In this document: positions 13,884-63,921 of the stretch, one piece after another
Layout of the letters: each line of letters starts with the position of its first letter
Numbering within the stretch: the stretch's first letter is position 1
Origin: a virus
Strand: one strand, 5' to 3'
UHGV virus genome: UHGV-1550212
Length of the DNA stretch: 64,000 nucleotides
Notes under the pieces: generated by a model
The model's input: only the letters and a program-made list of their open reading frames with translations
The model's database searches: none
Told to the model about the DNA's origin: nothing
Position numbers and translations under genes: made by a program

Positions 13884-15263
13884 TCAACTGTTTACTTCCC
13901 ACATGTTATCAATATCAAGTACAGGCCACATTCTACGTTGAAGCTCAACTGTTTGTGACAGTTTGCCTGACTTTGTGTAGTTCCATTTCAATGCAGTGCT
14001 TATGTATTTGCCGCTCAATCGCAAGTTCTTTGCATTCTGAGATACGCTTGGCTGTCGCTTTGGCGAATCTGTTGCTTTCTCATCAGGTTTTGTTGGCTCT
14101 TCAAGCTTGTTCTTGATTGACCATATCTCAACGTTGAGTGTTTTGAATGCATATAGCTGGTTCAGTGTTCGTTGTAATGTGCACGACAAAATTACTCTAT
14201 CAAGCATGCCTTGAGACCAATCATACATTGCAGCAGCTTCATAAAAGTGCTCATGCACATTTGAGTGGTCTGGGTCTCGTTTAGCAAGTTGAATTGCAGT
14301 CTGCTCTGTGTAATCTGCAAAAGTGTCCCAAATCTTATCTGTAGATTCTTGTTTGATGACAGGCTGTGATGTTTGCGCGTATATGCTTTGTTCACCTAAA
14401 TTGTGCTGCATTGACACAACATTAACCGCTGATGGTCTGCGCATAGATGTTGAATTGTATGTCATGCCATATTTTGTGAATCTTGACATCCAATTTTCAC
14501 CATTGACATTGTTATTCAAGATGAGCTTTTGCGGCTTTGGTAATTCTTTGCCGTCAATGTTATCAATTGTTATTGTGTCATCAAGCGGAGTCTCTTCCAT
14601 TTCTGCAAACACATCAACAATCGTCAAACGATACCAAGGGTCAATGAATGCTTTGACAACTTTGTTTTTACCAAGCCACATATGTCGTAATACATGACGT
14701 TTAATGAAGCTTAGATATGTTTCATTGCATTGCAGCCATGTCATTTTGTCATCTGTGCCATCAATGTTTGTGACAAGTCCAAGACCTGTATCTTCGCAAA
14801 TCTTCTTTATGACATCAATGCTTGTCATGTCATCAAATGATTGAACCATTGTTTGCTTCAATGCATCATCGACAAACAAATGTGCAGAAATTCGAATGTT
14901 GCCATTGTCTTGTTCTGCATTATCAATCAAAAAGTCGGCTTTGATGACCTTAAATTCTGTGTCAGCAGTGTTGCCAATGTAAAGCGTTGCGATGTCATGC
15001 ACAAGCGGAAAGTCATTGAACATAAAGTTCGCATTGTCATTAAATGACAACTCAAACTGCGGCAAAAAATCTTTGCCATATGACAGCTCAAAGTACTGAA
15101 TTGACCCAAAGGGCACATTCGTGTTGCACACATACACAAGTGGCACAAGTTTACCTGCAGACTTCAGCACAGATTTTGTCGAGTCTTCATTGACAGGGTC
15201 ATAGTTGACCATTATGTCTCGCACTTCATCAATCAAAGTGCCCTTCAAAACTTCTTTGAGCAT
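13884..15263 (-). CDS. Hypothetical protein, probable virion/morphogenesis component (459 aa)
   Basis: Long ORF, ATG start, in structural gene run; no motif recognised. Confidence 0.6.
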   Translation of the reverse strand: MLKEVLKGTLIDEVRDIMVNYDPVNEDSTKSVLKSAGKLVPLVYVCNTNVPFGSIQYFELSYGKDFLPQFELSFNDNANFMFNDFPLVHDIATLYIGNTADTEFKVIKADFLIDNAEQDNGNIRISAHLFVDDALKQTMVQSFDDMTSIDVIKKICEDTGLGLVTNIDGTDDKMTWLQCNETYLSFIKRHVLRHMWLGKNKVVKAFIDPWYRLTIVDVFAEMEETPLDDTITIDNIDGKELPKPQKLILNNNVNGENWMSRFTKYGMTYNSTSMRRPSAVNVVSMQHNLGEQSIYAQTSQPVIKQESTDKIWDTFADYTEQTAIQLAKRDPDHSNVHEHFYEAAAMYDWSQGMLDRVILSCTLQRTLNQLYAFKTLNVEIWSIKNKLEEPTKPDEKATDSPKRQPSVSQNAKNLRLSGKYISTALKWNYTKSGKLSQTVELQRRMWPVLDIDNMWEVNS

Positions 15264-15264
15264 G

Positions 15265-15729
15265 TCAGAAGATGATTTTGCCTGCTTGCTGATTGATAAT
15301 TACATGTGATGTGCTTCGCCTGTTTGCGACAATTGATGCATTAGATGCTTGTGCTTCAACTTTGTCTGTTGTAGTTTTATTGACTGTCTGTGGAACTGTT
15401 TTTGCATCTGCATTCTGCTTGTATGTCAGCACTGTTATGGCATCATATACAGAAGTCTCAGGCACAAGCAAGATGTCATTAGGCTCAAAATCAAATGGGG
15501 ACTTGCGATTGTTGAATGTCATCAATTGCTCAATGCCGCGTTTATGCGCGTATACGTACTCAGATAAGCCAATAGGATTTGCTGCATACACAGGATGCAC
15601 AAGAGCAACACCGCCGACACCGACAGTGTCAAATTGTCTTGATTGCGTAGCTGTTATGGGTTCATCTGAGTGCAATGTAACATTGTCAAGCAATGGCATT
15701 GCAACATCATCATAATTATCTGTGACCAT
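15265..15729 (-). CDS. Hypothetical protein (154 aa)
   Basis: ATG start; start overlaps downstream gene stop. Confidence 0.6.
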   Translation of the reverse strand: MVTDNYDDVAMPLLDNVTLHSDEPITATQSRQFDTVGVGGVALVHPVYAANPIGLSEYVYAHKRGIEQLMTFNNRKSPFDFEPNDILLVPETSVYDAITVLTYKQNADAKTVPQTVNKTTTDKVEAQASNASIVANRRSTSHVIINQQAGKIIF

Positions 15730-18101: not shown

Positions 18102-18117
18102 TAAAATTCCTATATAA

Positions 18118-18146
18118 ATTGTACAACGCTTTGTGCACATTTGCAA
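18118..18146 (-). promoter_or_regulatory. Sigma70-like promoter (sense: TTGCAA-N17-TACAAT)
   Basis: Direct reading; upstream of sigma-like gene. Confidence 0.45.
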
Positions 18147-21137: not shown

Positions 21138-22430
21138 CTACAACAATGACGGCACTCGTTGAGTTTCAAGTGGGTCGCTGACATTGATGCCTGTGTATGC
21201 AACAAGTCGTTGTATTGGGCCAAGTACGAGTTTTTCGAACATGAGTCGTTTGTTCATTGGCGGCACATCTGGCATATACTTCGGTGTCGGCATTTCGCCT
21301 GGTGCAAAGCCAAATGCATCGCAATATTGACGAGAGCCAATTGGTATATTTGACAAATCTGACTTTGCTCTGTCAACAAAGTAGTAGAACACTCGACCGC
21401 CTTCAATCAATGGGTATCGTGTTTCCAATCCATGTGCTTTGACAAGACAGTTATGCCAACAACATGCTCTATATTGAGGCAGTACACCTTTTGCTAACTG
21501 CCATTCACCATCATAGCTTAGCACATAGTCATGATACTTGTTTGCATTGACATATGCACAAAGTTTCTCCAAGTCTTGCTCGGCTTCAAAGCGTTTCCAT
21601 AATTTCTGTATGAGCTTTGGATATGTCGCAGAAGTTAATTCGCCTCTGAACATTTTCTTGAATGCATAATCAAGCATTTGTCTAACAAGCATTGACGAGC
21701 CTGTTTGAATAAGTTCGATGCCTTTGCCTTGAATGTGCTCAGTAGGGTCTTCGAATACTCGACCATCTACATATATTTGAGCCTTTAAGTACTTTTTCTT
21801 TTGGGCAAATAATGCAGTGTCAGAAATCGTTTCGAGGTCAAATAGCAAAATTGAATTGCCGTGGCGTTTTGCGAGGTCTGCTGCATATGCACCATTGAAT
21901 AACTCTTCCATACGATATTTGAATATCGCAAGAATCAAGTCATACCAATTTTTGCCTATGTAGCCAATTGATTTGACAGTTGGCTCAAAGTGAATGTACA
22001 AAGAGTCTGTATCAATGTACAACACTTTGTCTTCATAAGGCTCTTGCTTTGGCGACACAGACAAATCAAAATTGCCCTTCAATTGTGGGTCATTACGCAG
22101 CTTTTCATGCAATTCATAATCACACCACCACTTATTGTTGAGATAGTCATTTGCTACTCGTTCACCAAAGTGAATGAAGTTGCGGCCTTCAGCAGTAATT
22201 GATTCTGCAACTGCCATATTAAAGAAGTGATAGAAACGATTGCTTGTAGCGCCATATATTGAGTTTCGACAACATTTTGCTGAGACTTGCAGTCCTGCAT
22301 GCTTTAGTGATTCTTGCATTGCAAAATCTCTCAATTCAAATAGACGTTCAGTAGACAACTGGCTTAAATCACCAGTCAAATCTACTCCATCTATTTCAAT
22401 TTTTGACATATCTATCTGAGCTTCTGCCAT
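21138..22430 (-). CDS. DNA polymerase family B, C-terminal fragment (motifs B and C)
   Basis: ...CCRNSIYGATS (KxxxNSxYG) and ...VLYIDTDSLYIHF (YxDTDS); 430 aa; own promoter upstream. Confidence 0.85.
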   Translation of the reverse strand: MAEAQIDMSKIEIDGVDLTGDLSQLSTERLFELRDFAMQESLKHAGLQVSAKCCRNSIYGATSNRFYHFFNMAVAESITAEGRNFIHFGERVANDYLNNKWWCDYELHEKLRNDPQLKGNFDLSVSPKQEPYEDKVLYIDTDSLYIHFEPTVKSIGYIGKNWYDLILAIFKYRMEELFNGAYAADLAKRHGNSILLFDLETISDTALFAQKKKYLKAQIYVDGRVFEDPTEHIQGKGIELIQTGSSMLVRQMLDYAFKKMFRGELTSATYPKLIQKLWKRFEAEQDLEKLCAYVNANKYHDYVLSYDGEWQLAKGVLPQYRACCWHNCLVKAHGLETRYPLIEGGRVFYYFVDRAKSDLSNIPIGSRQYCDAFGFAPGEMPTPKYMPDVPPMNKRLMFEKLVLGPIQRLVAYTGINVSDPLETQRVPSLL

Positions 22431-23399: not shown

Positions 23400-23433
23400 C
23401 TTGTATCTATGTTGTTGATTTTCAATTTAATAT

Positions 23434-23462
23434 ATTGAACAACATTTGTTGACATTTTGCAA
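23434..23462 (-). promoter_or_regulatory. Sigma70-like promoter (TTGCAA-N17-TTCAAT)
   Basis: Direct reading; upstream of 22572..23399. Confidence 0.4.
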
Positions 23463-24723: not shown

Positions 24724-26229
24724 TTACAATTTGATTGCGCCTCTACGAGCAAGCTCTTCTTCAATCAATCGAACATGATTGTTAGCATACCAAAATTGCA
24801 ATTTTTTGTGATAATTGCGAACGTTGCCAAGCTGTTCTTGAGTTTCTTTATACATTGAAGGCTCTCTGTTGTCATACAGACAATTGTTGACTGACACAAA
24901 GTAATTTGGGTCTGCTTTGTAATGCTCAATTTCATCAGGATTTGTTAAACGTCTAATAAAGTTGTCTGGTGAAATATTCGCCGAGCGCATACTTGACGGA
25001 TACAATGAGTTTGCGTCAACACAGACAACCATACGAGCCCAATGGTTAAATGGTTGCTTAACAAAGCCGCCCTCAAATGAATGTACTACATTCTCTGGGC
25101 CACCTTGAGCACATACAACTTTGCCGCCATATTTGTTGTATAAGTATGTCATCATGACGCCCTCAGATTGCTTAACTGGTCCTTGGCAGTGATTCATGTC
25201 AATATTTGTCATATTTGACAATGACATCACATTTGATATCAAGTCAGTTTTTGCAGCAATCATTGCATTGACCATAGTATCGACAGCATTGTATGCAATG
25301 AATGTGCATGGATGATACAAATACAGCTCTTTAAGTGTGCAATCATAGGGCAACTTACCTACGCCGAACATACGATGTGCAATGTAGTCAAGTCGCAATG
25401 ATTCCTTTTGCCACACTGAATAGTCGTATGTGTCCATGAGCTGCATGTAGTCATCAATGTACTTGTGATATGGCATACCATTGCCCCAGACAGTTCTGCC
25501 AACTGGAGATGCCAATGCTAAATCAATATTGTGCATTGCGCATCGATTTTTGACATAGATGTTATCGAAGTCATTGATGTTCCAGCCTGTCAATGCAGGA
25601 ATGTTTTTGAAGAGCTTAGTCACCCAAAAATGCAACAATTCATGCTCATTTGCATGTTGAAAAATTTTGACAGTTGGATGTTCTTTCAAATACGCAGCAA
25701 AGCAATGTTGACCCATATACTCTTGAATGATGCCATTGACAAACTCAAATGCATCATCCAATGTTGGGTTTTGTTTGCCGCAGCTTTTGCGCAAATCATC
25801 ATCATTCAACAAGTCAACAGTAGTCTGAATGACACAATTGCATTGTTCATCGCATGTACTTATTGCATTAATGGGCATTTCAGCTTTGTCAGGCTTTGGA
25901 AAGCCATTGCCAATTTCAGTCTCAATATCGTAAAAGTACAACTTTGGTCTACGATAAGCAAACAATTCAGCTTTGTCAGCTTCAGGCAATTCAAATAAGA
26001 ATTGCAGCAAGTCAAATTGATTGAATCGTTTTGCTGTGACTCGAGTCACTGGCAATTTACGCCAATCTTGAATATCTGCATATTGAGGCTCTACGTGGTC
26101 TGATATTTGCCACACTGGAAATTGATATGGCTGTTCACAGACTGGGTATGTTTTGATGTCAATGCCACCTTGCTCATTAACATATGAGACTTCAATGCCA
26201 TGTGACAAATATGCTACGTCAACAATCAT
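24724..26229 (-). CDS. DNA polymerase family B, N-terminal fragment (3'-5' exonuclease + motif A)
   Basis: FYDIETE (Exo I), NINDFD (Exo II), YNAVD (Exo III), VDANSLYPS (motif A); 501 aa. Confidence 0.85.
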   Translation of the reverse strand: MIVDVAYLSHGIEVSYVNEQGGIDIKTYPVCEQPYQFPVWQISDHVEPQYADIQDWRKLPVTRVTAKRFNQFDLLQFLFELPEADKAELFAYRRPKLYFYDIETEIGNGFPKPDKAEMPINAISTCDEQCNCVIQTTVDLLNDDDLRKSCGKQNPTLDDAFEFVNGIIQEYMGQHCFAAYLKEHPTVKIFQHANEHELLHFWVTKLFKNIPALTGWNINDFDNIYVKNRCAMHNIDLALASPVGRTVWGNGMPYHKYIDDYMQLMDTYDYSVWQKESLRLDYIAHRMFGVGKLPYDCTLKELYLYHPCTFIAYNAVDTMVNAMIAAKTDLISNVMSLSNMTNIDMNHCQGPVKQSEGVMMTYLYNKYGGKVVCAQGGPENVVHSFEGGFVKQPFNHWARMVVCVDANSLYPSSMRSANISPDNFIRRLTNPDEIEHYKADPNYFVSVNNCLYDNREPSMYKETQEQLGNVRNYHKKLQFWYANNHVRLIEEELARRGAIKL

Positions 26230-28307: not shown

Positions 28308-28350
28308 CTTATTTATGATTTGATGTCTTGTTATATTATTATATGTTGAT

Positions 28351-28379
28351 ATTGTACAACGCTAAGTGTCATTTTGCAC
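28351..28379 (-). promoter_or_regulatory. Sigma70-like promoter (GTGCAA-N17-TACAAT)
   Basis: Direct reading; upstream of 27738..28307. Confidence 0.45.
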
Positions 28380-29931: not shown

Positions 29932-30168
29932 TTATTCGAAATCCGTGTCATCTGCATTTTCATTAGGGTCATAGATAAGCCATACAAATGCTGCACAGCC
30001 AAGTATGAATAAGCCTCCGCCAATGATTGTCGTAAAAACCGAACCAATCCAATGCTTCATAATATCACCGAGCGGATTCAATGTTTCATAGCCAATCATA
30101 AATGCGACAAATACAACTATTATTGCTGCTATTGCTTTGTTTGTGGTATTTCGTTTTATTGTTGCCAT
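29932..30168 (-). CDS. Small membrane protein (78 aa)
   Basis: Trimmed to ATG 30168 (MATIKRNTT...); two hydrophobic segments. Confidence 0.5.
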   Translation of the reverse strand: MATIKRNTTNKAIAAIIVVFVAFMIGYETLNPLGDIMKHWIGSVFTTIIGGGLFILGCAAFVWLIYDPNENADDTDFE

Positions 30169-30221: not shown

Positions 30222-30236
30222 ATATTATATATAGAT

Positions 30237-30265
30237 ATATTACAACACGCAAATCATTTTTGCAC
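30237..30265 (-). promoter_or_regulatory. Sigma70-like promoter (GTGCAA-N17-TAATAT)
   Basis: Direct reading. Confidence 0.4.
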
Positions 30266-36624: not shown

Positions 36625-36909
36625 TCAATCCAACAATTGAGCAGCAGCAATTGCGCCAAGTGCTGCAGATATAAATGATTGCACAATGTATGATAAACTC
36701 CAGCAACGTTCTATTGCATAGAGTTTTGACAAGCCACATGCAATGATATCAAGTGCGACTGCACACAATGTAACTGCAAGCAAATGTGTTCGCAATGGCA
36801 CTTCAATTGTGTCGTATGTCATTAGTGTTGTTGCAAATGCAATGAATGCGATTATTACGCAGTGCAGCAGTGCAAACATCAAGCGTTCAATGAAATGTTG
36901 ACTGTTCAT
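36625..36909 (-). CDS. Small multi-pass membrane protein (94 aa)
   Basis: ATG start; three hydrophobic segments. Confidence 0.5.
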   Translation of the reverse strand: MNSQHFIERLMFALLHCVIIAFIAFATTLMTYDTIEVPLRTHLLAVTLCAVALDIIACGLSKLYAIERCWSLSYIVQSFISAALGAIAAAQLLD

Positions 36910-39282: not shown

Positions 39283-39310
39283 ACTTCGCATCAATAACTT
39301 GATGCGAAGT
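39283..39310 (-). terminator. Intrinsic terminator after 39328..40989
   Basis: ACTTCGCATCAA-TAAC-TTGATGCGAAGT, 12-bp stem; A6 on plus = U-tract on sense. Confidence 0.65.
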
Positions 39311-39327
39311 GTACTCAATACAATATG

Positions 39328-40989
39328 CTAACGACCGTAGCTGTATGCATTCGCCTTATCAGCATTTGCTTTGCGTGCATTGTTTCGTTGAGTTTGACTA
39401 CGAATTGCTTTCTTATTGCCAGACGCTTCAAGTGCAGTATTGTACTGCTTAACTGCTGCATTGAGCTCATTCACAAATTGCTGTGTATTGCATTGTTCAA
39501 GCAGCAGCATGTTAGATGTCAATTGAGCAGACTCAGTATTGTCATTGAGCTGCTCCAAATCACGACAATTGTAATATGTGGTGACGTCATCATCTGTAAT
39601 GCTGACACAAGTTGATGCAAATGCCACTGTAGGCTTAGCAATGTTGCATTCATATTCATAGTATTTGACGTCTTGATAGTCATATCCACCACTCAAGCGC
39701 TTAACTTTGACATTATTGCGAACTTTTTCTACTTTCTGAATGTTTGCTATCTGTGCAAGCTGTGCATACTTAGACGCATCAATGGTTGCAACTCCAAGCG
39801 ATTCAGATGCTTTAATGTCTTCAAGCAATTCATAAATTGCTGCAGCAATGTTTGACTTGATGCCTACATAATTTGCTGTTAGCTGCTGAGGCGTACGAGC
39901 TTGTTCAACAATCTTTACATTTTGACGAAGCTTAGCAAAGTTGTCAGTGCTTGTTAGCAATGCATTGTAGAGCAAAGTGTCATTTGCAGGCTCACCACCG
40001 TATTTGGCGCATAATGCATCATTAGGCTTGCCAAAAATGTCTTCAATGCGCTTTGCATAGATACCAGTTGGAATTCGTGCAACACTTCTGTTTGTCACAT
40101 AGATTTCATTACCAGCTTCATCACAAATTGCTAAATACTGGTTGTCTTCTGTGTACACTCTGTAAGTTTTGCCTTTGATGTTTTTGAGCTTGTATTTGCG
40201 ATTGCTATTGTCAAACCACACACTATCGCTTTTGATGACATTGCCATCGGTGTCATAGTTTGCAAACCACTGAAAAGTTTTAGAATTGAAACTCTTAGAC
40301 TGCACTGCATCGTTAGGTTCCCAAGTTGCATTTGGCAGCTGACGAGCATGCGTAGTCAATTCATATCGTCCATCGTCAGCATTCCATGTTTTTGTAATGA
40401 TATGCGCCTTTGTTTTGTCTGTCCATACAGTGCAAGTGCCATCAGATGTTCGCTCAGAATACATTTCACCAATAGGACTGATTTCCCAAAAGATGTCACC
40501 AGTTTTGCCAGCAGTCTGTACAAACTTGCGATTGTCTTCACCAGTGATTCTATCGATGCGACCAACAAGTTCATATTTGCTTACAGTGTATTCATAGCCA
40601 TTGTCGTCATATGCAATAGTGTGTTTGAGTCTGCACTGATATTTGCCATTGTCGGTATACAACTCCTGATAAACTTCACGGCCTTTGCTGTCATATGACC
40701 ACTTGCCTAACAGTTGACCAAGTGAATTGTATTCAAGCCAAGTGCCTGACTGCTTGCCATCATTGTCCCAAGTTCGAATCATAGCAAGTTGAGCGTTATC
40801 GAACCACTGTTCGTCTTTAATGACAACGCCTGCAGCATTCGTAGTAGTTCTACTACGCAAGCATTTGTCTACAAGACTTCCGTCTTTAAGTGTTTGCCAA
40901 TGCGTCGTCGTGACTTTTTGTGCGTCTGCGTTTACATGCATAAGCACACTTGCCGCTAATACAAGCAGCAACATTTTTAGTGTTTTCAT
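39328..40989 (-). CDS. Secreted protein with cleavable signal peptide and MORN/YwqK-like repeats (553 aa)
   Basis: MKTLKMLLLVLAASVLMHVNA-DAQ; ...GTWLEYNSLGQLLGKWSYDSKGREVYQELYTDNGKY. Confidence 0.65.
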   Translation of the reverse strand: MKTLKMLLLVLAASVLMHVNADAQKVTTTHWQTLKDGSLVDKCLRSRTTTNAAGVVIKDEQWFDNAQLAMIRTWDNDGKQSGTWLEYNSLGQLLGKWSYDSKGREVYQELYTDNGKYQCRLKHTIAYDDNGYEYTVSKYELVGRIDRITGEDNRKFVQTAGKTGDIFWEISPIGEMYSERTSDGTCTVWTDKTKAHIITKTWNADDGRYELTTHARQLPNATWEPNDAVQSKSFNSKTFQWFANYDTDGNVIKSDSVWFDNSNRKYKLKNIKGKTYRVYTEDNQYLAICDEAGNEIYVTNRSVARIPTGIYAKRIEDIFGKPNDALCAKYGGEPANDTLLYNALLTSTDNFAKLRQNVKIVEQARTPQQLTANYVGIKSNIAAAIYELLEDIKASESLGVATIDASKYAQLAQIANIQKVEKVRNNVKVKRLSGGYDYQDVKYYEYECNIAKPTVAFASTCVSITDDDVTTYYNCRDLEQLNDNTESAQLTSNMLLLEQCNTQQFVNELNAAVKQYNTALEASGNKKAIRSQTQRNNARKANADKANAYSYGR

Positions 40990-41296
40990 TGTTTGTTGTT
41001 ATTTGAGATGGTTTTGGACAATTAGCAAAGAATGGATTGCATTTGTAGTTGTTCAGTCGCAAATCATCATACTGTGACTTGTCAATGTATTGCACTGTGA
41101 CTTTGTTAAACGCTAGTTTAACGCCAAATCGAGCAGCACATTGACCATACAACATATAACGATAATTGACGTTCTTACGAGATATGCTGCTGTCCTTATT
41201 AAAGGCTATTTTTCGTGTGCTTATGTATGCAAATGTAACATCGCCATCAAGACATGTAAACTTGCGTGCATACACATATACTCGAACAGTTTTCAT
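40886..41296 (-). CDS. Hypothetical protein (136 aa), overlaps 5' end of 39328..40989
   Basis: Internal ATG of ORF 40886..41398; overlap of ~100 nt makes this uncertain. Confidence 0.3.
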   Translation of the reverse strand: MKTVRVYVYARKFTCLDGDVTFAYISTRKIAFNKDSSISRKNVNYRYMLYGQCAARFGVKLAFNKVTVQYIDKSQYDDLRLNNYKCNPFFANCPKPSQITTNNENTKNVAACISGKCAYACKRRRTKSHDDALANT

Positions 41297-41300
41297 AGCA

Positions 41301-42566
41301 TTACCGATATTTGATGTGCCATGGCCGCATAAATGCACATACATTGATGCGGTTTGCATACACATATCGAAGCATTGCAACTGCATTGCTGACATCACTT
41401 ACTGCAGCAGGTTCATAATTTGCATGCCCGCCAATCTTGGCATTCAAAGCATCACGAGTAACTGGCGTAAGACTGCCATTTCTGAGTTCAGGCCATAATT
41501 GTGCTGCAAGTGATGCATTGTTTACAATGGCTTGCTTATGAAAGATTGCGTTTTCTCGTGCGTTCTTTTTGCAATTTGACTGCCACATGCCATATACGAA
41601 GTATGGCTGATGCATAACCACACAATTGCCAGATAACTGCAAAATTGCATGTACAAAGTCGATTGCAGTATCTGCGTCAAGACCCTTTGTTTTGCAGTCA
41701 TTGTAGTCAATATTGTACAGCTTCAGCCACTCTGCATCGAACAACTCATACGGGTCATTGATGTAAATGTGCTTGAACCACAGCAGCTCTGCATCAGAAG
41801 ACATCACTGCAATATCTACTTGTGCAATACGCTGCCAGTCATTGTCAAATATGCTGCTTGGGATGTTGTCATGCTTTGCGCCACTGTAGCATGTCATTGC
41901 TGCTGTACAATGCAGCATTGGCCAAACTTGAAGTCGCTTGCAACATTCAGCAAAGACATCTGCACATGCATTGACATCAGCAAGAGCATCATGAGCGGAT
42001 TCAAAGTCATGACCAAACAAGCCTCGATATGCATCTACAAGTTTTGCAGACCCATTGCTCAAATGCTTTGCAAAGCCTTTGTACAGAAACTTCGTGTCAA
42101 TGACGGGGTATTGAGTCATAAAGTTTGCAGTTTTGCAACGCTGACATTCATAATCAAGAATCGTCAAGTCATACGGCGCATTGTGTGCAATGAGATGTGT
42201 TACGCCAAAACGTTCCAAGTCAAGTCTGAACTGGTCAAGCACTTTTTGCATGGGCTCTCCATGTTCATACAACTGCTCCATAGTATGACCATGCACAGCA
42301 AGAGCTTCTGCTGGCATATCATCAAAACTGCTGTTGAATCTGCCAAGTGGCATTACAAGCATGTTGTTTCGATGCAGTTCTATAATGTTGCCCGCATAGT
42401 CAAGTCTGAAGATTTTGTATGCAAGCTGAACTACAAATGACATCTCTCGCAAGTCAATGACATCTTGCTTGTGATAATAGTCAACTGCTAAGCCTGTTGA
42501 CTCAGTATCTATGCATGCGCATATCAGCTCTGTGATATGCTCTTTACTTTTATTGATATGTTCCAT
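41301..42566 (-). CDS. DnaQ-like 3'-5' exonuclease (DEDDh) with C-terminal extension
   Basis: ACIDTESTGL (Exo I), IAHNAPYDL (Exo II), HDALADV (Exo III). Confidence 0.7.
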   Translation of the reverse strand: MEHINKSKEHITELICACIDTESTGLAVDYYHKQDVIDLREMSFVVQLAYKIFRLDYAGNIIELHRNNMLVMPLGRFNSSFDDMPAEALAVHGHTMEQLYEHGEPMQKVLDQFRLDLERFGVTHLIAHNAPYDLTILDYECQRCKTANFMTQYPVIDTKFLYKGFAKHLSNGSAKLVDAYRGLFGHDFESAHDALADVNACADVFAECCKRLQVWPMLHCTAAMTCYSGAKHDNIPSSIFDNDWQRIAQVDIAVMSSDAELLWFKHIYINDPYELFDAEWLKLYNIDYNDCKTKGLDADTAIDFVHAILQLSGNCVVMHQPYFVYGMWQSNCKKNARENAIFHKQAIVNNASLAAQLWPELRNGSLTPVTRDALNAKIGGHANYEPAAVSDVSNAVAMLRYVYANRINVCAFMRPWHIKYR

Positions 42567-42568
42567 GC

Positions 42569-43198
42569 TTATGAGATTTTTTCTGCAATCAAGCCAGATG
42601 TAAAATCAGGATGGAACTGCAGAGGCCCATTATCAATGACATTGATTTCAATATGGTTGCCATCGATGTCTATGACAGATGCTTTGTCAAAGCCTACAGG
42701 GCTATTGTAGATGTATGCAGTGCCTGATTTGTCAATGACAATGTCACCATGAACAAAGTACTCACGTTCAGTTACTGCAAAGCCTCCGCAAGTTGCAGCA
42801 TTGTTTGAATCTTGTTCGACATCGTAGTCAGCTTTCAATGCTTGTGCAAGTATAATGACATTTTTGTTGTACTTTCTGCGGCCAATAGGTGTGTCAATCA
42901 TATTGATGAGCGACACAATCTTATCTTGCGGCGACATGTTCATAGCAGCATATTGCAATGCAGACACATAATACAACAATGTTTCAGTGCCATCATTGTC
43001 AATGCGAATTTGACAAATATCGCCAATTGCGATGTCATCAATATTGATGCAGACAACATGTTTAACATTGAATGTTTCATTACGATGCATTGACTTGACT
43101 ACAATTTTCGTAATTACATTGTCATAATCTCTTTCGATATGTGCTACTGTACAAATGTACATATCGTCATGCTCTGTAAAGCGATATTGTTTACTCAT
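42569..43198 (-). CDS. Hypothetical protein (209 aa)
   Basis: Trimmed to ATG 43198. Confidence 0.5.
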   Translation of the reverse strand: MSKQYRFTEHDDMYICTVAHIERDYDNVITKIVVKSMHRNETFNVKHVVCINIDDIAIGDICQIRIDNDGTETLLYYVSALQYAAMNMSPQDKIVSLINMIDTPIGRRKYNKNVIILAQALKADYDVEQDSNNAATCGGFAVTEREYFVHGDIVIDKSGTAYIYNSPVGFDKASVIDIDGNHIEINVIDNGPLQFHPDFTSGLIAEKIS

Positions 43199-43412
43199 AT
43201 GTGTAAGTGTGAAGTTGTTCAAAAACGTCTTCAATCAAGTTTGTTTCAAATGCAAACTCATTTTTTGATATGCAAGTGACCATATAAATGCCATCAATGT
43301 TTACGATGCTGCAATCATGACCATCTGGACTAAATTTTCTGTCTTTGTACAGAATTTCAGCCATGATGAGTCGTTGATTAAGCATAAGTGGATTGCTATA
43401 GAATCGTTTCAT
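43191..43412 (-). CDS. Hypothetical protein (73 aa)
   Basis: ATG start. Confidence 0.4.
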   Translation of the reverse strand: MKRFYSNPLMLNQRLIMAEILYKDRKFSPDGHDCSIVNIDGIYMVTCISKNEFAFETNLIEDVFEQLHTYTYE

Positions 43413-43416
43413 ATCA

Positions 43417-43638
43417 TTAAGCTTCTTTGAAATTCAAGCAATTATTGAACCAGAGTTCTTCTGAAATCGTAAGCTCCAATTCAAAGCAGTTATTCTTGAT
43501 GAAGTCGGTCGGGTCATAATTGAAATACACATATTCACCTGAATAGTGAAAAGGCTGTTCCATAGCAATCAATGCGAACATTAAACGGTCAATGTCCTTT
43601 TTATTGCCGTATGCTACGTAAACTTTAATCTGTTTCAT
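43417..43638 (-). CDS. Hypothetical protein (73 aa)
   Basis: ATG start; AAACCTCTACAAC leader. Confidence 0.45.
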   Translation of the reverse strand: MKQIKVYVAYGNKKDIDRLMFALIAMEQPFHYSGEYVYFNYDPTDFIKNNCFELELTISEELWFNNCLNFKEA

Positions 43639-43668
43639 TGTTGTAGAGGTTTTATATTATATATTAAT

Positions 43669-43697
43669 ATATTACAACATTTGTTGTCAATTTGCAC
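43669..43697 (-). promoter_or_regulatory. Sigma70-like promoter (GTGCAA-N17-TAATAT)
   Basis: Direct reading. Confidence 0.4.
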
Positions 43698-43738
43698 AAT
43701 TGTTGTTAACAAAATGCATTACATTGACAAAAAAATAA

Positions 43739-43763
43739 AGGCTCAGTTTGTATAACTGAGCCT
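43739..43763 (-). terminator. Intrinsic terminator after thymidylate synthase gene
   Basis: AGGCTCAGTT-TGTAT-AACTGAGCCT; A-rich on plus. Confidence 0.6.
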
Positions 43764-43783
43764 CTTGAAATGACACGAACTTA

Positions 43784-47407: not shown

Positions 47408-47448
47408 TCTAAATGAGATTTAGATTATGTTCGAATATATGAGAACAT
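47408..47448 (-). promoter_or_regulatory. Leader element: inverted repeat TCTAAAT-GAG-ATTTAGA plus palindrome ATGTTCGAATATATGAGAACAT (copy 2)
   Basis: Immediately upstream of helicase ATG; near-identical to 54361..54402. Confidence 0.5.
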
Positions 47449-47465
47449 ATATTATTTGTAAAAAT

Positions 47466-47494
47466 ATAATACTACAATCAGCATACATTTGCAC
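47466..47494 (-). promoter_or_regulatory. Sigma70-like promoter (GTGCAA-N17-TATTAT)
   Basis: Direct reading. Confidence 0.4.
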
Positions 47495-54402: not shown

Positions 54403-54417
54403 ATATTATATGTTGAT

Positions 54418-54446
54418 ATTGTACAACATATGTTATCATTTTGCAA
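54418..54446 (-). promoter_or_regulatory. Sigma70-like promoter (TTGCAA-N17-TACAAT)
   Basis: Direct reading. Confidence 0.45.
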
Positions 54447-54783
54447 GCATTTTGATGATTGCATCTATCACAGTTTCACTGAGCAAGTAGTAGACAACGC
54501 TTATCAGCAATGATATCAGTACTGCAGCTGTGATAAATTGCAACGCATTCACAATTGCACGCACAAATGTTATCTGCGTGTTGTATGCAAGCACTATGCA
54601 GCATAGCACAATAATGACACACCAGACTACAATTGCATATGCAGGCATCAATGAATTTGTCCATATGCAGTACAATACAGTAATTAGCATCAAAAATGCT
54701 ATTGCTCTGATAACTGACACAATGATGTCTATGTAAGGCTTCATTGCACGCAAATGAACTCTTGGTTTATGTTGCTTCATCAT
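54436..54783 (-). CDS. Multi-pass membrane protein (115 aa)
   Basis: ATG start; hydrophobic. Confidence 0.55.
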   Translation of the reverse strand: MMKQHKPRVHLRAMKPYIDIIVSVIRAIAFLMLITVLYCIWTNSLMPAYAIVVWCVIIVLCCIVLAYNTQITFVRAIVNALQFITAAVLISLLISVVYYLLSETVIDAIIKMLAK

Positions 54784-56012
54784 GACTTTATGTACAATTC
54801 TGCAAGTTGTCTGGTGTACAGTCGTGGATTATGATATGCTTTCCAATACGCAGTAGACTTTATTGCAGCAAGAATTTCATCATAATGTTTGACTGCTTCT
54901 GCTACAACTTCATCAAGCACGCTCAAATCTTCTACACTGACAAGCAACCATTTTTCTACAATATCAATGAACTCCTGATTGCAATTGAAGCCATACTTGT
55001 AGTTGCAAGTATCAAGTACAAGTGGAATGCAATCATTTGTCAATGCTTCAAAAAATCTACGAAGACTGAAACAATTCTCATCATATGATGGAATGCTCAA
55101 TGTAAACTTGGCAGTCTTGATGAGTTGCAAATACTCTTCGTATGGAATCAGAGGACCATTGTGCTTCCATTGATTATTGTGTCGTCTTGTCGTGTACTTG
55201 AACAAAAACTTTGAATTGTCAAGTTCACAAAGATGGTCCATGCGTAAAATGTAGTTATAGCGGTCTCTTCTGTCAGGCCAACTGTCAGTCATCGCAAACA
55301 CAAAGTCTCTTTGCTTGTCACATTTTGCTGACATACCTCTATGCTGACACATGCAATACCAATATTGCTGCGATGGGCTGAACTCAAACTTTGAATGATG
55401 CTCACTTCCATCTTTGCATTGCTGAACATAAATGTTGTCAGGCACAAAGTGAAAATAAAAGTGTCGAATTTGCAAGTCATTGATGTAGTCAAGCTTATGC
55501 TGCAATGGGTCTTCACAGAAATTGTAACACTGAATATGCTTTGCTGCTGCGTACTCAGCAACTATGAACGTGCACATCCATTGCAATGCAATATCTTCAC
55601 TCTTCAAAAAGTTTACAAGCGGCTCATTTGGATGCGCTTTGCATTCATTGAACATTTTGTACCACTTGCATTGCTCCATATCGTACTTTGATACTGTATT
55701 GCCATTAAAGAACGACACAGTGTCAATTTTGAATGCATCAAGTTGTTTATGCACAATGTCAAGTGCTTGTGCGTATGTGATTGTCTCATCAGACATTATC
55801 TGCGCAAACTTGATTGGATGCGCATGCAAATTTGCGATAGTGTCTGCCGACATTTTACGCTGTGTGTGATAATCGACATACAAAAACTGACACTTGTCTG
55901 TAAGCAATTCAAGCATTGCTACAGATTTCCATCGAATTGCTTGAAAGAAATTGAAGTGTGCAGTTTGAAAGATGAGATGCGTAGGTTTATCAGAATGAGT
56001 CAAAGTTTGCAT
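54780..56012 (-). CDS. Glycosyltransferase-like protein (GT-B type), cassette 1
   Basis: C-terminal ...IPSYDENCFSLRRFFEALTNDCIPLV (E...EA..x.P motif); paralog of 59060..60616. Confidence 0.45.
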   Translation of the reverse strand: MQTLTHSDKPTHLIFQTAHFNFFQAIRWKSVAMLELLTDKCQFLYVDYHTQRKMSADTIANLHAHPIKFAQIMSDETITYAQALDIVHKQLDAFKIDTVSFFNGNTVSKYDMEQCKWYKMFNECKAHPNEPLVNFLKSEDIALQWMCTFIVAEYAAAKHIQCYNFCEDPLQHKLDYINDLQIRHFYFHFVPDNIYVQQCKDGSEHHSKFEFSPSQQYWYCMCQHRGMSAKCDKQRDFVFAMTDSWPDRRDRYNYILRMDHLCELDNSKFLFKYTTRRHNNQWKHNGPLIPYEEYLQLIKTAKFTLSIPSYDENCFSLRRFFEALTNDCIPLVLDTCNYKYGFNCNQEFIDIVEKWLLVSVEDLSVLDEVVAEAVKHYDEILAAIKSTAYWKAYHNPRLYTRQLAELYIKS

Positions 56013-57175
56013 GGACAAATGTCGCAGTTATGTTGATGTTTGTGTTTATTTATGAAGTCATATGTCACTGCAAAAAAGTGCTTTGCAATGTCATATCGAG
56101 TTTTCAAATATGCTGCTTGGCGTTCACAAAACGCTGCATAAATGTCTGGGTGTCGTTTGAATGCAGCAATGCGTTGCTGTACTTGTTCTGCAGAATGTAC
56201 ATATGACACTTTGCTCAAATATGCATCATCTGCAAATAATCGTCTGTCTTTGTCAACTGCGCAATCAACAAAAGTTGCAATTCGTGCAACAATGGCTTCA
56301 CCAACACGATTTGGCATCAACCCATATTGCTCATATTGTTGGTCACCGATAGCAATGTGCGCTGCTGCATATGACATTGCATATGGCACACTATAAAATG
56401 GCACACTAAAATCAAATGAGCAATTTGACTGTAGTAGTTGCGTTTGTGCATCAGACAATCTACTTGTCAAGTTGCCTGTATGTTTGTGCTCACCAAGAAA
56501 ACTTGAGCGACAACCTGAATCTACATAGTATCGAATGACTTTGTTTATGCGACTGTCAGATAGCATATGCCAATCTCTTGTAGCATATATCAAGTCTACT
56601 GTTTTTGCACCAATATGACGAGGCTCTATCGCAACATTGCTGTATGTTGGCAGCATGAACAATGGCAGCCATTTGACATTGTTGAACACTGAATGTTCAT
56701 TTGACAAATTCATGCACTGGCTAAGTTCAAGTACTGGCTCATCATACACGCCATGCAGTTCAACTCTGCCTGCATGCACAAAGTTGACACGCTTAAATGG
56801 AAATCGCATATCAGTGCAAACCGTCATTCTTGCTGCAGTAGACATTCGCCACATAGCATGCAGCTTAACAACTGCTTCGGCTTGAGGTCGAGGCAGCATA
56901 TTTAGCAAATCAATCCAGCCACCCCACAAAATCCAAACATCATTTGAACAGATGTTGAATTGCAAACTCAATATGTCTTCTACTGTTGCAGCAATGATGT
57001 CATGCCCATTGATGCTTGCAAGGTGCTTTCGTTGATTTGCAATAAGAATGACTTGACTGAACGGAGACTCTGGAAATGACACAAGCGCCTTTGCAAACAA
57101 CACGGGTTCTTGTGATACCAAGTTGTTTGAGTATGGGTCGATTATGCAATCAAGCTTGTGTATGAAAAGTCTCAT
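56000..57175 (-). CDS. Possible DNA glycosyltransferase, cassette 1 partner
   Basis: ...ILWGGWID...TVCTDMRFPF; paralog of 60613..61779; resemblance to T4 beta-glucosyltransferase is from memory and weak. Confidence 0.4.
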   Translation of the reverse strand: MRLFIHKLDCIIDPYSNNLVSQEPVLFAKALVSFPESPFSQVILIANQRKHLASINGHDIIAATVEDILSLQFNICSNDVWILWGGWIDLLNMLPRPQAEAVVKLHAMWRMSTAARMTVCTDMRFPFKRVNFVHAGRVELHGVYDEPVLELSQCMNLSNEHSVFNNVKWLPLFMLPTYSNVAIEPRHIGAKTVDLIYATRDWHMLSDSRINKVIRYYVDSGCRSSFLGEHKHTGNLTSRLSDAQTQLLQSNCSFDFSVPFYSVPYAMSYAAAHIAIGDQQYEQYGLMPNRVGEAIVARIATFVDCAVDKDRRLFADDAYLSKVSYVHSAEQVQQRIAAFKRHPDIYAAFCERQAAYLKTRYDIAKHFFAVTYDFINKHKHQHNCDICPCKL

Positions 57176-58109: not shown

Positions 58110-58164
58110 TGGCAGGTTTCTTGCTTTGTAAAGCTTGGATAGAGGATGGATTTTATATGTTGAT

Positions 58165-58193
58165 ATTGTACAACATGCAAAATGCATTTGCAT
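58165..58193 (-). promoter_or_regulatory. Sigma70-like promoter (ATGCAA-N17-TACAAT)
   Basis: Direct reading; proximal of a tandem pair. Confidence 0.4.
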
Positions 58194-59039: not shown

Positions 59040-59068
59040 ACAGTACAACGTAGTTATGCTCATTGCAC
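59040..59068 (-). promoter_or_regulatory. Weak sigma70-like promoter (GTGCAA-N17-TACTGT)
   Basis: Direct reading. Confidence 0.3.
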
Positions 59069-60616
59069 TTCTACGAATGGCTCTTTCAACACAAAGCTGT
59101 CACCATTGCAACATGCGGCTGAGCCATCGTCTGCATCAAGTGCACATGACATATCAGACTTGCAGAACTTGCAATATAAACATGACCATGCATGACTCAT
59201 GAAGTTGTTTGCTTCACAAATTGCGCAACGCTCATGCATAAGTGCATTGTCGCAATTATCACAAGACTTCTTGATTGGCACAGTTTTGTTGATGTATGCA
59301 AGATGCAATGCAATATCATACACAAAGTCACCCGTATATTGCTGAATGAAATCAGTATGCCACAACTCTTTTAACAATTGTGCATGTCTATATGGCTGAA
59401 CAATGTCTTCAAGATGCTGCAAGTCATCATCGCTAACCATGAGCTTCTTAATGACAAATTGTTTGAACTGTGGCCATCTGTCAAACATATAGAGTTTGCA
59501 TGAGTTGTGCACAAGTGGAACACAGCCAAGCACAATGCTTTCACAGAATCTACGCAAACTAAAACAGTTTGCATCATATGACGGCACAATCAATGTGAAT
59601 CTGCTATGCTTGATGAGTTCAAGGTATGTGTCATATGGCAGTAGCTTATCTGACAATTGCTGTTGTTGTTTGTCTCTGCTGAAAAATCTGAACACAATAC
59701 CCTTGTCAATTGCATCTTGATTGTGCAGATGCATGAGTTTGTTGATGAGTTCTGTGCGTTCAGTTTTGTCTCGCCAAGTATTCGTCAATGCAAATGCAAA
59801 ATTCAGTCGCTTGTCATCAAACGTCGCTTCAATATCATTCCAAGTTTTGTCATGCAAATACCAGTATTGCTGTGATGGGCACCATCCATAATATGCAATA
59901 GCATCTTGTTCTGCTGTAACGTCATACACATATGCAGAATTGTATTCAAGGCCAAGCCTTTTGACGTTGTTGCAGTCATGAAAGTACCAATGCTGCACTT
60001 TGAATATCTTTGATGCACTGAATGCGCTTTCATATGGCCCTGAATAGCGATAGTCAATGTAATTGAGCTTGTGCTGCAATGGGTCTTCGACAAAGTTGTT
60101 TATGACTGTGCCTTGTTGTTTGCCCTTAGTCTTGCGAGCATTCAATGCAACATTGTATTGCATGATGACTGACAGCATCTCATACACTACATACATGAGT
60201 GCTTTGTAGACTGAGCCTGCTGCGTCAATTAGTGGCAAATCACGTTTGACTGATGTAGCGCCAAATGTCTTGCAATATGCAGAAAATGTGTCAAGTTCTG
60301 CTTGCTGAAATGAATTGCATGCACCATTGAATATGTTGAATGTTGCAATGTAGCTCATATTGCAAGATGTCATTGACATATCAAGACGCTTCATAATGTC
60401 GACAATGCGACATTGAGCAAAATCTGACACATCAACATATTTGACATGATGGCCTGATGTAGTCAAGCCATCTGCGACATCTTTCATCTGTGGCACAAAG
60501 CCTACAACAATGAATAAGTCATCTTTGTTTGCTCGTTCAAACATTGCTGCACTTTTCCAAGTCAATGAATTGAAAAAGTCTATGTAGCCAGTTTGAGTGA
60601 TTATATGCGTTCTCAT
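59060..60616 (-). CDS. Glycosyltransferase-like protein (GT-B type), cassette 2
   Basis: ...VPSYDANCFSLRRFCESIVLGCVPLV; N-terminus also parallels 54780..56012. Confidence 0.45.
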   Translation of the reverse strand: MRTHIITQTGYIDFFNSLTWKSAAMFERANKDDLFIVVGFVPQMKDVADGLTTSGHHVKYVDVSDFAQCRIVDIMKRLDMSMTSCNMSYIATFNIFNGACNSFQQAELDTFSAYCKTFGATSVKRDLPLIDAAGSVYKALMYVVYEMLSVIMQYNVALNARKTKGKQQGTVINNFVEDPLQHKLNYIDYRYSGPYESAFSASKIFKVQHWYFHDCNNVKRLGLEYNSAYVYDVTAEQDAIAYYGWCPSQQYWYLHDKTWNDIEATFDDKRLNFAFALTNTWRDKTERTELINKLMHLHNQDAIDKGIVFRFFSRDKQQQQLSDKLLPYDTYLELIKHSRFTLIVPSYDANCFSLRRFCESIVLGCVPLVHNSCKLYMFDRWPQFKQFVIKKLMVSDDDLQHLEDIVQPYRHAQLLKELWHTDFIQQYTGDFVYDIALHLAYINKTVPIKKSCDNCDNALMHERCAICEANNFMSHAWSCLYCKFCKSDMSCALDADDGSAACCNGDSFVLKEPFVEVQ

Positions 60617-61779: not shown

Positions 61780-62416
61780 ATGCTTTGCAATTATCTATTA
61801 CATGTTGATATTGTACTTCATCTATGATGTGATTTGCAATGACACCATATGACGTGTCATACATTGGCATCTTCTCATATGACAATGCTGCGTCAAGATT
61901 GCATATCACATAATTGCAATGCACAATGTCATCTACATTGTCACTAACTGCTACGATATTGACGCAATTTGCAAGAAATGCATCATCAAAGTCTACTTGA
62001 TTGCATGCAACCTCATAATCTGCAGCACTTCTTGGGTACCAATATAACTCAATGCCGGCACTACTAAGTAGTCGCAAGCCATCTATGTGATGATACAAGT
62101 CAACAAAATGCACTTGCTTAACGCCTGCTTGCAAAATAAGCTTTGCGCAATCAATGCATGGACTATATGTTACATATAGCACTGCGTCATTTGCAGTCGC
62201 ATTGCCATATTTGCACAGCTTCATCAATGCATTTGATTCTGCATGCAAAACTTCTTTGTTGGTTTTGATGCCTGCTGATGTTGCATGTTCACAACAATTT
62301 GACATGCCAGTTGGCATGCCATTGTAGCCATCTGAAATTATGCAGCCATCTTTTACAAGCAATGCGCCGACTTTTGCTCGCTGAGCATGTGAATTTAATG
62401 ACCAGAGCTCAGCCAT
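61751..62416 (-). CDS. dCMP deaminase
   Basis: HAESNAL (H-A-E zinc motif), SPCIDCAKLI (PCxxC); start chosen at MAELW (62416), ATG at 62476 also in frame. Confidence 0.75.
   Translation of the reverse strand: MAELWSLNSHAQRAKVGALLVKDGCIISDGYNGMPTGMSNCCEHATSAGIKTNKEVLHAESNALMKLCKYGNATANDAVLYVTYSPCIDCAKLILQAGVKQVHFVDLYHHIDGLRLLSSAGIELYWYPRSAADYEVACNQVDFDDAFLANCVNIVAVSDNVDDIVHCNYVICNLDAALSYEKMPMYDTSYGVIANHIIDEVQYQHVIDNCKAYEQTLHFEI
61810..61839 (-). promoter_or_regulatory. Sigma70-like promoter (TTGCAA-N18-TACAAT) inside 3' end of deaminase gene
   Basis: Direct reading. Confidence 0.4.
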
Positions 62417-63863: not shown

Positions 63864-63892
63864 GTTCGTATTGTTTTATCATATATGAATAT

Positions 63893-63921
63893 ATTGTACA
63901 ACATGTATTGAGCTTTTGCAC
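63893..63921 (-). promoter_or_regulatory. Sigma70-like promoter (GTGCAA-N17-TACAAT), proximal
   Basis: Direct reading. Confidence 0.45.

Follow-up and report, generated by a model that had tools for sequence, protein, structure and literature searches.

Spackle (gp61.3) of bacteriophage T4 is an all-helical protein of ~97 amino acid residues (aa) that inhibits the gp5 tail lysozyme; spanins are further exported phage proteins, and YwqK is the immunity protein of the YwqJ toxin of Bacillus subtilis. Spackle is periplasmic and made early by T4 (PMC7677548), phage T5 provides another precedent for an exported phage protein, Llp (PMC9586334), and signal-peptide proteins following the Q-rule were described from Porphyromonas gingivalis phages (PMC10367356). 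According to the Bacteroidetes Q-rule, Gln stands at position +1 of signal peptidase I (SPI) sites and is cyclised to pyroglutamate (PMC5837995, PMC10653852). Here we analysed a stretch of 64,000 nucleotides (nt) of the virus genome UHGV-1550212 (hereafter, the window), in which an open reading frame (ORF) on the minus strand (39328-40989; ATG start, stop codon at 39328-39330) encodes a 553-aa protein with the homologues P0001, P0004, and P0005. An earlier note on this DNA had read the product as a secreted phage protein with MORN/YwqK-like repeats. Our best explanation overall, tentatively held, is that it may be a lineage-specific, non-structural exported accessory protein that shields the infected cell at the envelope.

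The predicted signal peptide (aa 1-23, MKTLKMLLLVLAASVLMHVNADA; 40921-40989, minus strand) consists of the basic residues K2 and K5, a 12-residue core (MLLLVLAASVLM), a polar c-region (HVNADA), and an A-x-A site, with the predicted SPI cleavage before Q24. The sole hydrophobic stretch of the protein is located there (aa 1-21; the best 19-residue Kyte-Doolittle windows all begin at residues 1-8), and among the long ORFs of the window this one alone passed a simple N-terminal filter with the canonical layout. Homologues were searched for exhaustively with phmmer in 1.84 billion representative sequences, and just two further lineages were found, P0004 (532 aa) and P0005 (a fragment). These divergent homologues are 28-40 % identical to the 553-aa protein (P0004: 34 % over the matched stretch with phmmer and 28 % over 529 residues with BLASTP). 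Within the signal peptide only 1 of the 19 aligned residues (5 %) of P0004/P0005 is identical to the window protein; the layout of the n-, h-, and c-regions is the same, and the Ala-Gln junction is invariant in the three lineages (ADA|QKV in the window, CFA|QKV in P0004, and AVA|QEV in P0005). The columns of A23 and Q24 do not vary, and P0017 carries the variant A-N-A|Q. All three lineages thus show what a Sec/SPI site of the Bacteroidota Q-rule type requires, a small uncharged residue at both -3 and -1, followed by Gln at +1. The conserved A-x-A|Q, together with the Q-rule, makes the cleavage probable after A23, two residues downstream of A21. The classical signal peptide of the earlier note was therefore borne out by the layout and the conserved Ala|Gln, whereas its cleavage site had to be moved, since A23|Q24 is more likely than A21|D22 on the sequence comparison. 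It is very probable, from these features, that the product goes through Sec and SPI.

The destination of the exported protein was considered from its two ends. No Cys is present in residues 1-42 (the first is C43), that is, there is no lipobox of the signal peptidase II type, and the protein is therefore not a lipoprotein. The C-terminal sorting domain of the type IX secretion system (T9SS; Por_Secre_tail or type-B domain) gave no Pfam match on aa 321-553 even at E<=10; the C-terminus is predicted to be helical with a basic tail, which was also counted against a T9SS cargo. A Bacteroidota protein would need either a lipobox or a T9SS C-terminal domain to reach the surface or the medium. Because both are lacking, the mature protein of ~530 aa would be periplasmic or envelope-attached, and the word "secreted" is better replaced by "exported to the periplasm or envelope", the export itself being very probable. 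The statement that exported phage proteins are uncommon was an overstatement, considering T4 Spackle, T5 Llp, the Q-rule proteins of P. gingivalis phages, and MA9V1_115 of Chryseobacterium phage MA9V-1. The last one (L005, 9163-9507) is RlpA-like, has 114 aa, and carries a signal peptide ending FIA|QQ; this phage group thus has a further exported protein of the Q-rule type. Accessory proteins that are exported are well known from phages, and only the family is new here, with three lineages and no Pfam or PHROG entry.

The ORF is a real gene under purifying selection, which we take as practically certain. The ratio of nonsynonymous to synonymous polymorphism (pN/pS) was 0.09-0.15 in both halves of the protein (window vs the variants L001 and L004; three 95-98 % variants). 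The 90 % cluster of the protein contains 44 sequence variants, on contigs of up to 174-181 kilobases (kb), from human-gut metagenomes and IMG/VR. Short cluster members (537, 539, and 548 aa) were considered as forms without the signal peptide and were rejected as such, because they are alternative start calls and not truncations: P0012 is P0011 minus the first five residues, and P0018 is the L004 protein begun at Met17, the full N-terminus being kept in the L004 DNA.

That the gene is carried by a phage, as the earlier note had assumed, is well supported by the rest of the window, which encodes a T4-type portal, a sheath-like protein, a prohead protease domain, a T4 gp13-like neck protein, and a family-B DNA polymerase in two ORFs (24724-26229 and 21138-22430) that lie ~2.3 kb apart with other ORFs between. 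The same split arrangement of the polymerase is seen in MA9V-1 (MA9V1_135 and MA9V1_138). For the 1113-aa protein of the window, the closest GenBank relatives are from Chryseobacterium phages MA9V-1 and MA9V-2, Sphingomonas phage PAU, and Tenacibaculum phages PTm1, PTm5, and pT24, and more distant ones are from Prevotella Lak megaphages. The source phage is an uncultured, ~175-kb myovirus with a T4-like portal, of the PAU/PTm1/MA9V/Lak-related group. The hosts of the relatives are mostly Bacteroidota (Chryseobacterium, Tenacibaculum, Flavobacterium, and Prevotella), with the exception of Sphingomonas phage PAU. A Shine-Dalgarno motif was found in 0 of the 31 long ORFs of the window, whose leaders are A-rich instead. 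The lack of this motif, the phage relatives, and the Q-rule junction taken together point to a gut Bacteroidota host.

The distribution of the gene is narrow. Neither DNA searches nor tblastn gave a match among GenBank phages, word-indexed protein searches gave near-identical sequences only (P0004 was a singleton there), no homologue was found in a limited pattern scan of 185,579 GTDB species genomes, and a metagenome scan recovered only copies at 95-96 %. In the window, L001, and L002 the gene order is an RNase_T-type exonuclease, the 553-aa protein, a 476-aa protein, and a 292-aa baseplate protein (PHROG 37871). In MA9V-1, a relative that has been cultured, homologues of the 476-aa and 292-aa proteins come immediately after the exonuclease gene, and the gene in question is missing at this position. 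In 20 more distant IMG/VR loci the homologue of the 476-aa protein stands among other baseplate genes, and no signal-peptide gene is located upstream. From these comparisons it is a lineage-specific gene at this position.

It has also diverged much faster than the genes around it. Comparison of the window with L002 gave 28 % identity for the protein, as opposed to 59, 68, 79, and 71 % for the flanking genes. The divergence is unevenly distributed: identity is 43-46 % in residues 24-205 and ~20 % in the remainder. Within the 90 % cluster, several sites are multi-allelic, such as 233 (C/S/R/H/Q) and 469 (V/I/S/A/N), and the density of polymorphic sites is highest in aa 206-320. Note that a homologue of the third lineage is located on a 1-kb contig of ~55 % GC (L003, 424-1005) and has an in-frame TAA (…VVERW*LVGRKD…), beyond which clear homology continues; decay to a pseudogene, an error of sequencing, or recoding of the stop codon might each explain this. 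A Bacteroides-type -7 box (TAtcTTTG) is located upstream of this homologue at ~159-166.

The protein can be divided into a conserved core (aa 24-205; 40375-40920, minus strand), a variable β-rich region (aa 206-320; 40030-40374, minus strand), in which β-strands were predicted with low confidence and the identity to P0004 is 22 %, and an orphan C-terminal half (aa 321-553; 39331-40029, minus strand). The repeat motif quoted by the earlier note is located at aa 82-104 (GTWLEYNSLGQLLGKWSYDSKG). With the Pfam model MORN_2 (PF07661) the whole protein gave no match at E<=1; the score was 7.9 bits on aa 24-320 and 17 bits for P0004, below the gathering threshold of 29.6. On the other hand, the exhaustive phmmer search retrieved a genuine MORN_2 protein, P0008 (E = 2.6e-4 for the whole library), to whose repeats aa 49-139 were aligned in pairwise BLASTP (E = 6e-7). 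A hidden Markov model (HMM) of the P0008 repeat unit scored 10.3 bits on aa 62-84 and 12.1 bits on the whole sequence, vs <=3.2 in 200 shuffles. Considering the sub-threshold Pfam score, the match to P0008, and the unit HMM above the shuffles, the resemblance to MORN_2/YwqK appears real but weak in sequence, over about three units. In the AlphaFold2 (AF2) model of aa 24-205 (mean predicted local distance difference test (pLDDT) 76, predicted template modelling (TM) score 0.66; pLDDT of 80-94 for residues 43-163) a regular series of β-hairpins was obtained. The top named matches in the viral predicted-structure library (BFVD) were mostly MORN or YwqK proteins, one of them from a tailed phage. 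Tandem units of ~22-23 aa arranged as a β-hairpin array, as in MORN_2, are thus supported by the AF2 model, the unit HMM, BLASTP, and BFVD. The N-terminal core is therefore modelled as a MORN-type β-hairpin array at the level of the fold, and it is not a PF07661 member by the family's own threshold; the proposed MORN/YwqK-like repeats hold only in the former sense.

The likeness to the MORN_2/YwqK family, which also occurs in viruses including tailed phages, consists of the ~23-aa period, the motif W/Y-x-x-N-G-x-L ... Y-x-x-G, and the β-hairpin array. The differences are the sub-threshold score, the only ~3 recognisable units, the signal peptide, the 230-aa orphan C-terminal half, and the lack of a partner toxin gene. 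OspA-type single-layer β-sheets, Rhs/YD-repeats, and the β-meanders of the TCP10 G-box share only a generic antiparallel geometry with the protein and no sequence relationship; TonB-dependent barrels score like these, and a closed Rhs shell is unsupported. The full-length AF2 model was poor (pLDDT 46.6; Foldseek TM scores ~0.1), and its Foldseek matches were therefore read only as "β-hairpin array". Sequence searches of the PDB with the single protein and with a profile returned only noise (an i-body at E = 0.07-0.2), and nothing significant was found for the whole protein in Pfam, PHROGs, NCBIfam, or PADLOC.

The fold and the weak resemblance to MORN_2/YwqK-type repeats would suit an immunity-like or host-fitness protein that, in the manner of YwqK-type MORN-variant immunity proteins, binds and neutralises a periplasm-acting toxin (a bacteriocin, a type VI secretion system (T6SS) effector, or a lysin) and protects the cell from competitors, not from phages. 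Export, fast evolution, and lineage specificity are features that the gene would share with many immunity genes. However, no toxin gene adjoins it, the neighbours in the window, L001, and L002 being the exonuclease and baseplate genes; the MORN_2 threshold was not reached; PADLOC and NCBIfam gave no match; the limited pattern scan of the 185,579 species genomes found no bacterial homologue; and YwqK proteins are cytoplasmic. We regard such a role as quite unlikely. Since no toxin gene is adjacent and the MORN_2 family threshold was not reached, the label of YwqK antitoxin is not warranted for this protein. Nothing specific was found in the literature on MORN or YwqK proteins of phages, or on such proteins in T6SS immunity.

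The C-terminal half gave no match in Pfam, PHROGs, or PDB. Its low-confidence AF2 secondary structure shows long helices (20-36 residues) and one β-hairpin; a Cys pair (C461/C500) is conserved, and the end is a basic tail. Combined with the N-terminal hydrophobic segment, helices of this length could be those of a component of lysis or lysis timing, either a spanin-like protein spanning the periplasm or an antiholin-like sensor, with the helices bridging or signalling. Many exported phage proteins are lysis proteins, and the survey of P. gingivalis phages has spanins among the signal-peptide proteins (PMC10367356). Nevertheless, neither a lipobox nor a credible ORF for a lipoprotein, embedded or adjacent, was found here, and no endolysin or holin was recognised among the genes tested within ~4 kb. 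The length of 553 aa is far above the sizes of known i-spanins, the 12-residue core with A-x-A|Q resembles a cleaved signal peptide and not a membrane anchor, and relatives for which host lysis is just as necessary do without the gene. The marks of a spanin (a small anchored or lipobox protein, a partner lipoprotein gene, and a lysis cassette) are thus not those of this protein, and a function in lysis is highly improbable.

The gene is placed at the end of a putative transcription unit on the minus strand. The unit is bounded upstream by the terminator of the preceding one (43737-43765, minus strand; -17.8 kcal/mol, z = -6.3) and is headed by a promoter-like 42-nt motif (43655-43696, minus strand; TTGACA-N18-TAATAT, a sigma-70-like match at 10/12). 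Three small minus-strand genes (43417-43638, 43191-43412, and 42569-43234), also called in L001, open the unit and have no Pfam match. They are followed by a 421-aa DEDDh/RNase_T-type 3'-5' exonuclease (41301-42566, minus strand; PHROG 192, with Pfam RNase_T on the L001 and L002 copies), a 310-nt non-coding spacer (40990-41300, minus strand), and the 553-aa protein. An intrinsic terminator with a 12-base-pair (bp) stem and a T-run (39283-39310, minus strand; -20.4 kcal/mol, z = -6.4) begins 18 nt past the stop codon. In L001 (11683-11710) the 11-12 bp stem of this terminator is unchanged and the loop is inverted between the two variants (AGTTAT vs ATAACT); in L002 a hairpin of unrelated sequence is located at the same position after the gene.

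The spacer was considered as a small gene, or as part of a frameshifted longer protein, and both were rejected, because in L001 a TGA interrupts the ORF from 41296 at codon 5, and L002 has no spacer, its exonuclease stop codon overlapping the ATG of the following gene. This decayed spacer ORF (ATG 41296) overlaps the start of the exported protein in another frame, and the last ~100 nt of the spacer are identical in three variants. L002 also has, upstream of the exonuclease, a 301-aa ORF (171-1076) with a weak TnsA-like endonuclease match and no counterpart in the window, which may be a homing-endonuclease-type insertion.

The promoter-like motif (TGCAAAWTGAYA-N8-GTTGTAMAATATYAAYATATAATA on the minus strand) has at least eight copies upstream of gene clusters in the window (18104-18145, 23420-23461, 28337-28378, 30223-30264, 43655-43696, 54404-54445, 58151-58192, and 63879-63920; also 61793-61828 and 47434-47474). 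For its 24-nt core, 4 sites with <=3 mismatches were found vs 0 expected by chance. The motif is unlike the Bacteroides consensus TAnnTTTG. The clusters headed by it include those of the polymerase parts and of a 1308-aa AAA_23/Metallophos (SbcCD-like) protein. A late-promoter motif shared after terminators was also sought; TTTGTACATAT occurs once in the window, not above chance, and was rejected. By this layout the gene is the last one of a promoter-to-terminator unit with the exonuclease, and the terminator separates it from the baseplate genes. Because of its own terminator and the shared unit, it would be expressed with the exonuclease and insulated from the baseplate genes, and we read it as non-structural and not late; its timing would be that of the replication genes, before the late genes. 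A non-structural accessory role is likely.

The position directly upstream of the conserved pair of 476-aa and 292-aa baseplate proteins (PHROG 37871), and the occurrence of β-hairpin repeat arrays in tail and Rhs-like proteins, might instead suggest that the protein belongs to the neighbouring baseplate module and has a place in the virion or its assembly, such as that of a membrane-associated assembly factor or of a protein binding the tail tip, with the N-terminal segment removed or used in assembly. This is doubtful in the extreme, since a strong terminator precedes the baseplate genes, with its position kept in L002; MA9V-1 and the 20 distant relatives keep the baseplate genes and lack this one; and a Q-rule Sec signal would send the product to a compartment without tail assembly. 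Distant relatives have a member of a ~535-aa baseplate family upstream of the 476-aa homologue, and the protein is unrelated to this family as well (hhalign probability 0.1 %). The idea that it replaces that family here was rejected; the true homologue of the family in the window is the ORF at 13884-15263.

How the protein would act can be outlined as follows. The precursor would cross the inner membrane by Sec and be cut by SPI after Ala23; the new N-terminal Gln24 would probably be cyclised to pyroglutamate by the host, and the mature protein would stay in the periplasm or attached to the envelope. Its gene would be transcribed last in the exonuclease unit, with the timing of replication genes, as the motifs suggest, and the baseplate genes start past its terminator. 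We speculate that the conserved N-terminal MORN-type array may serve as a binding module and that the fast-diverging remainder may give specificity; the protein might shield the infected cell by binding to a component of the envelope or to an incoming phage's entry apparatus. Such an exclusion or entry block would work like T4 Spackle or T5 Llp, to both of which the protein is unrelated. Superinfection exclusion, envelope remodelling, and receptor masking, the candidates of the earlier note, would all fit the data; superinfection exclusion or an entry block in particular is our leading guess, possible rather than probable.

The closest comparison is with T4 Spackle (PMC7677548), which would share with this protein the signal-peptide export to the periplasm, a non-structural accessory gene expressed apart from the late structural genes, and a myovirus with a T4-like portal. 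It differs in that there is no similarity of sequence or fold, that our protein is β-rich with 553 aa, and that the search for a lysozyme domain in the hub-like protein of our phage detected none. The Q-rule proteins of P. gingivalis prophages (PMC10367356; rule, PMC5837995) are likewise encoded by Bacteroidota phages, have a Gln-exposing signal peptide, and are thought to act on the envelope, whereas they have no sequence relationship to our protein and belong to temperate siphovirus-like phages, not to a ~175-kb myovirus; a 553-aa protein with a MORN-type array sets the present case apart from them.

Several points weigh against the envelope-shielding role. Nothing ties the protein to exclusion in particular, and its likeness to Spackle, Imm, and Llp lies in the compartment and the accessory status only. 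Searches of Pfam, PHROGs, PDB, and GenBank phages brought up nothing similar to Spackle, Imm, Llp, Cor, or Sie proteins. A target of the kind inhibited by Spackle was sought in the phage and not accepted, the hub-like protein (13884-15263) having no detected lysozyme domain. Homologues of this ORF (459 aa) are the N-terminus of MA9V1_144, which carries the annotation lysozyme, and the ~535-aa baseplate family; no Pfam domain was found in it. The cleavage and the location of the exported protein are themselves predictions, and its C-terminal half was poorly modelled by AF2. Since the overall pN/pS is low, the fast divergence could be due to relaxed constraint on a repeat scaffold and not to an arms race. 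In addition, the motif copy at 18104 precedes a unit possibly running into baseplate-type genes (13884-15729), and the motif is therefore not a proven early marker.

An Imm-like block of DNA entry would be favoured if the single N-terminal hydrophobic segment, whose cleavage is only predicted, stayed uncleaved as the signal anchor of a bitopic inner-membrane protein with a periplasmic body, which is hardly likely given a hydrophobic core of merely ~12-13 residues, the helix-breaking polar c-region HVNADA after it, and the small -3/-1 residues and +1 Gln conserved in three lineages.

Other features of the window were noted in passing. A 12-nt tandem repeat (GGTTCCGGTTCA) with ~11 or more copies is located at the window edge (6-185) and would encode an acidic Glu-Pro repeat if the minus strand is coding. 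The ORFs at 36625-36909 (94 aa), inside the baseplate gene unit, and 29932-30168 (78 aa) have strongly hydrophobic N-terminal segments. The segments 55047-55145 and 59540-59638 (99 nt, 71 % identity) link the ORFs 54780-56018 and 59060-60616, which by this similarity are probably paralogues. The ORF 10982-12220 contains, near its 3' end, three tandem copies of a 30-nt unit (10997-11086).

Phages of gut Bacteroidota are abundant, and their accessory genes are almost entirely unannotated. Because the present gene represents one orphan family of three lineages in a familiar class, its immediate value is in annotation and not in a new principle. It is a clean example of a phage using the export signature of its host phylum, the Ala|Gln cleavage, and this signature can help to find the phylum of the host when a phage is uncultured, and it flags envelope-acting proteins. 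Should the protein prove to block superinfection or entry, the competition between phages in the gut would become easier to approach, and the protein would be a candidate for what makes infected cells resistant to phages. The strongest form of this proposal, which we consider unlikely, is that it may be the first envelope-acting exclusion or entry-blocking factor of the large Bacteroidota myoviruses (PAU/PTm1/MA9V/Lak-related), a pyroglutamate-capped periplasmic protein in which a MORN-type array is joined to a rapidly diversifying helical module recognising an envelope component or a rival tail tip. If true, it would represent a new protein family and a new mechanism of phage-phage competition in the human gut.

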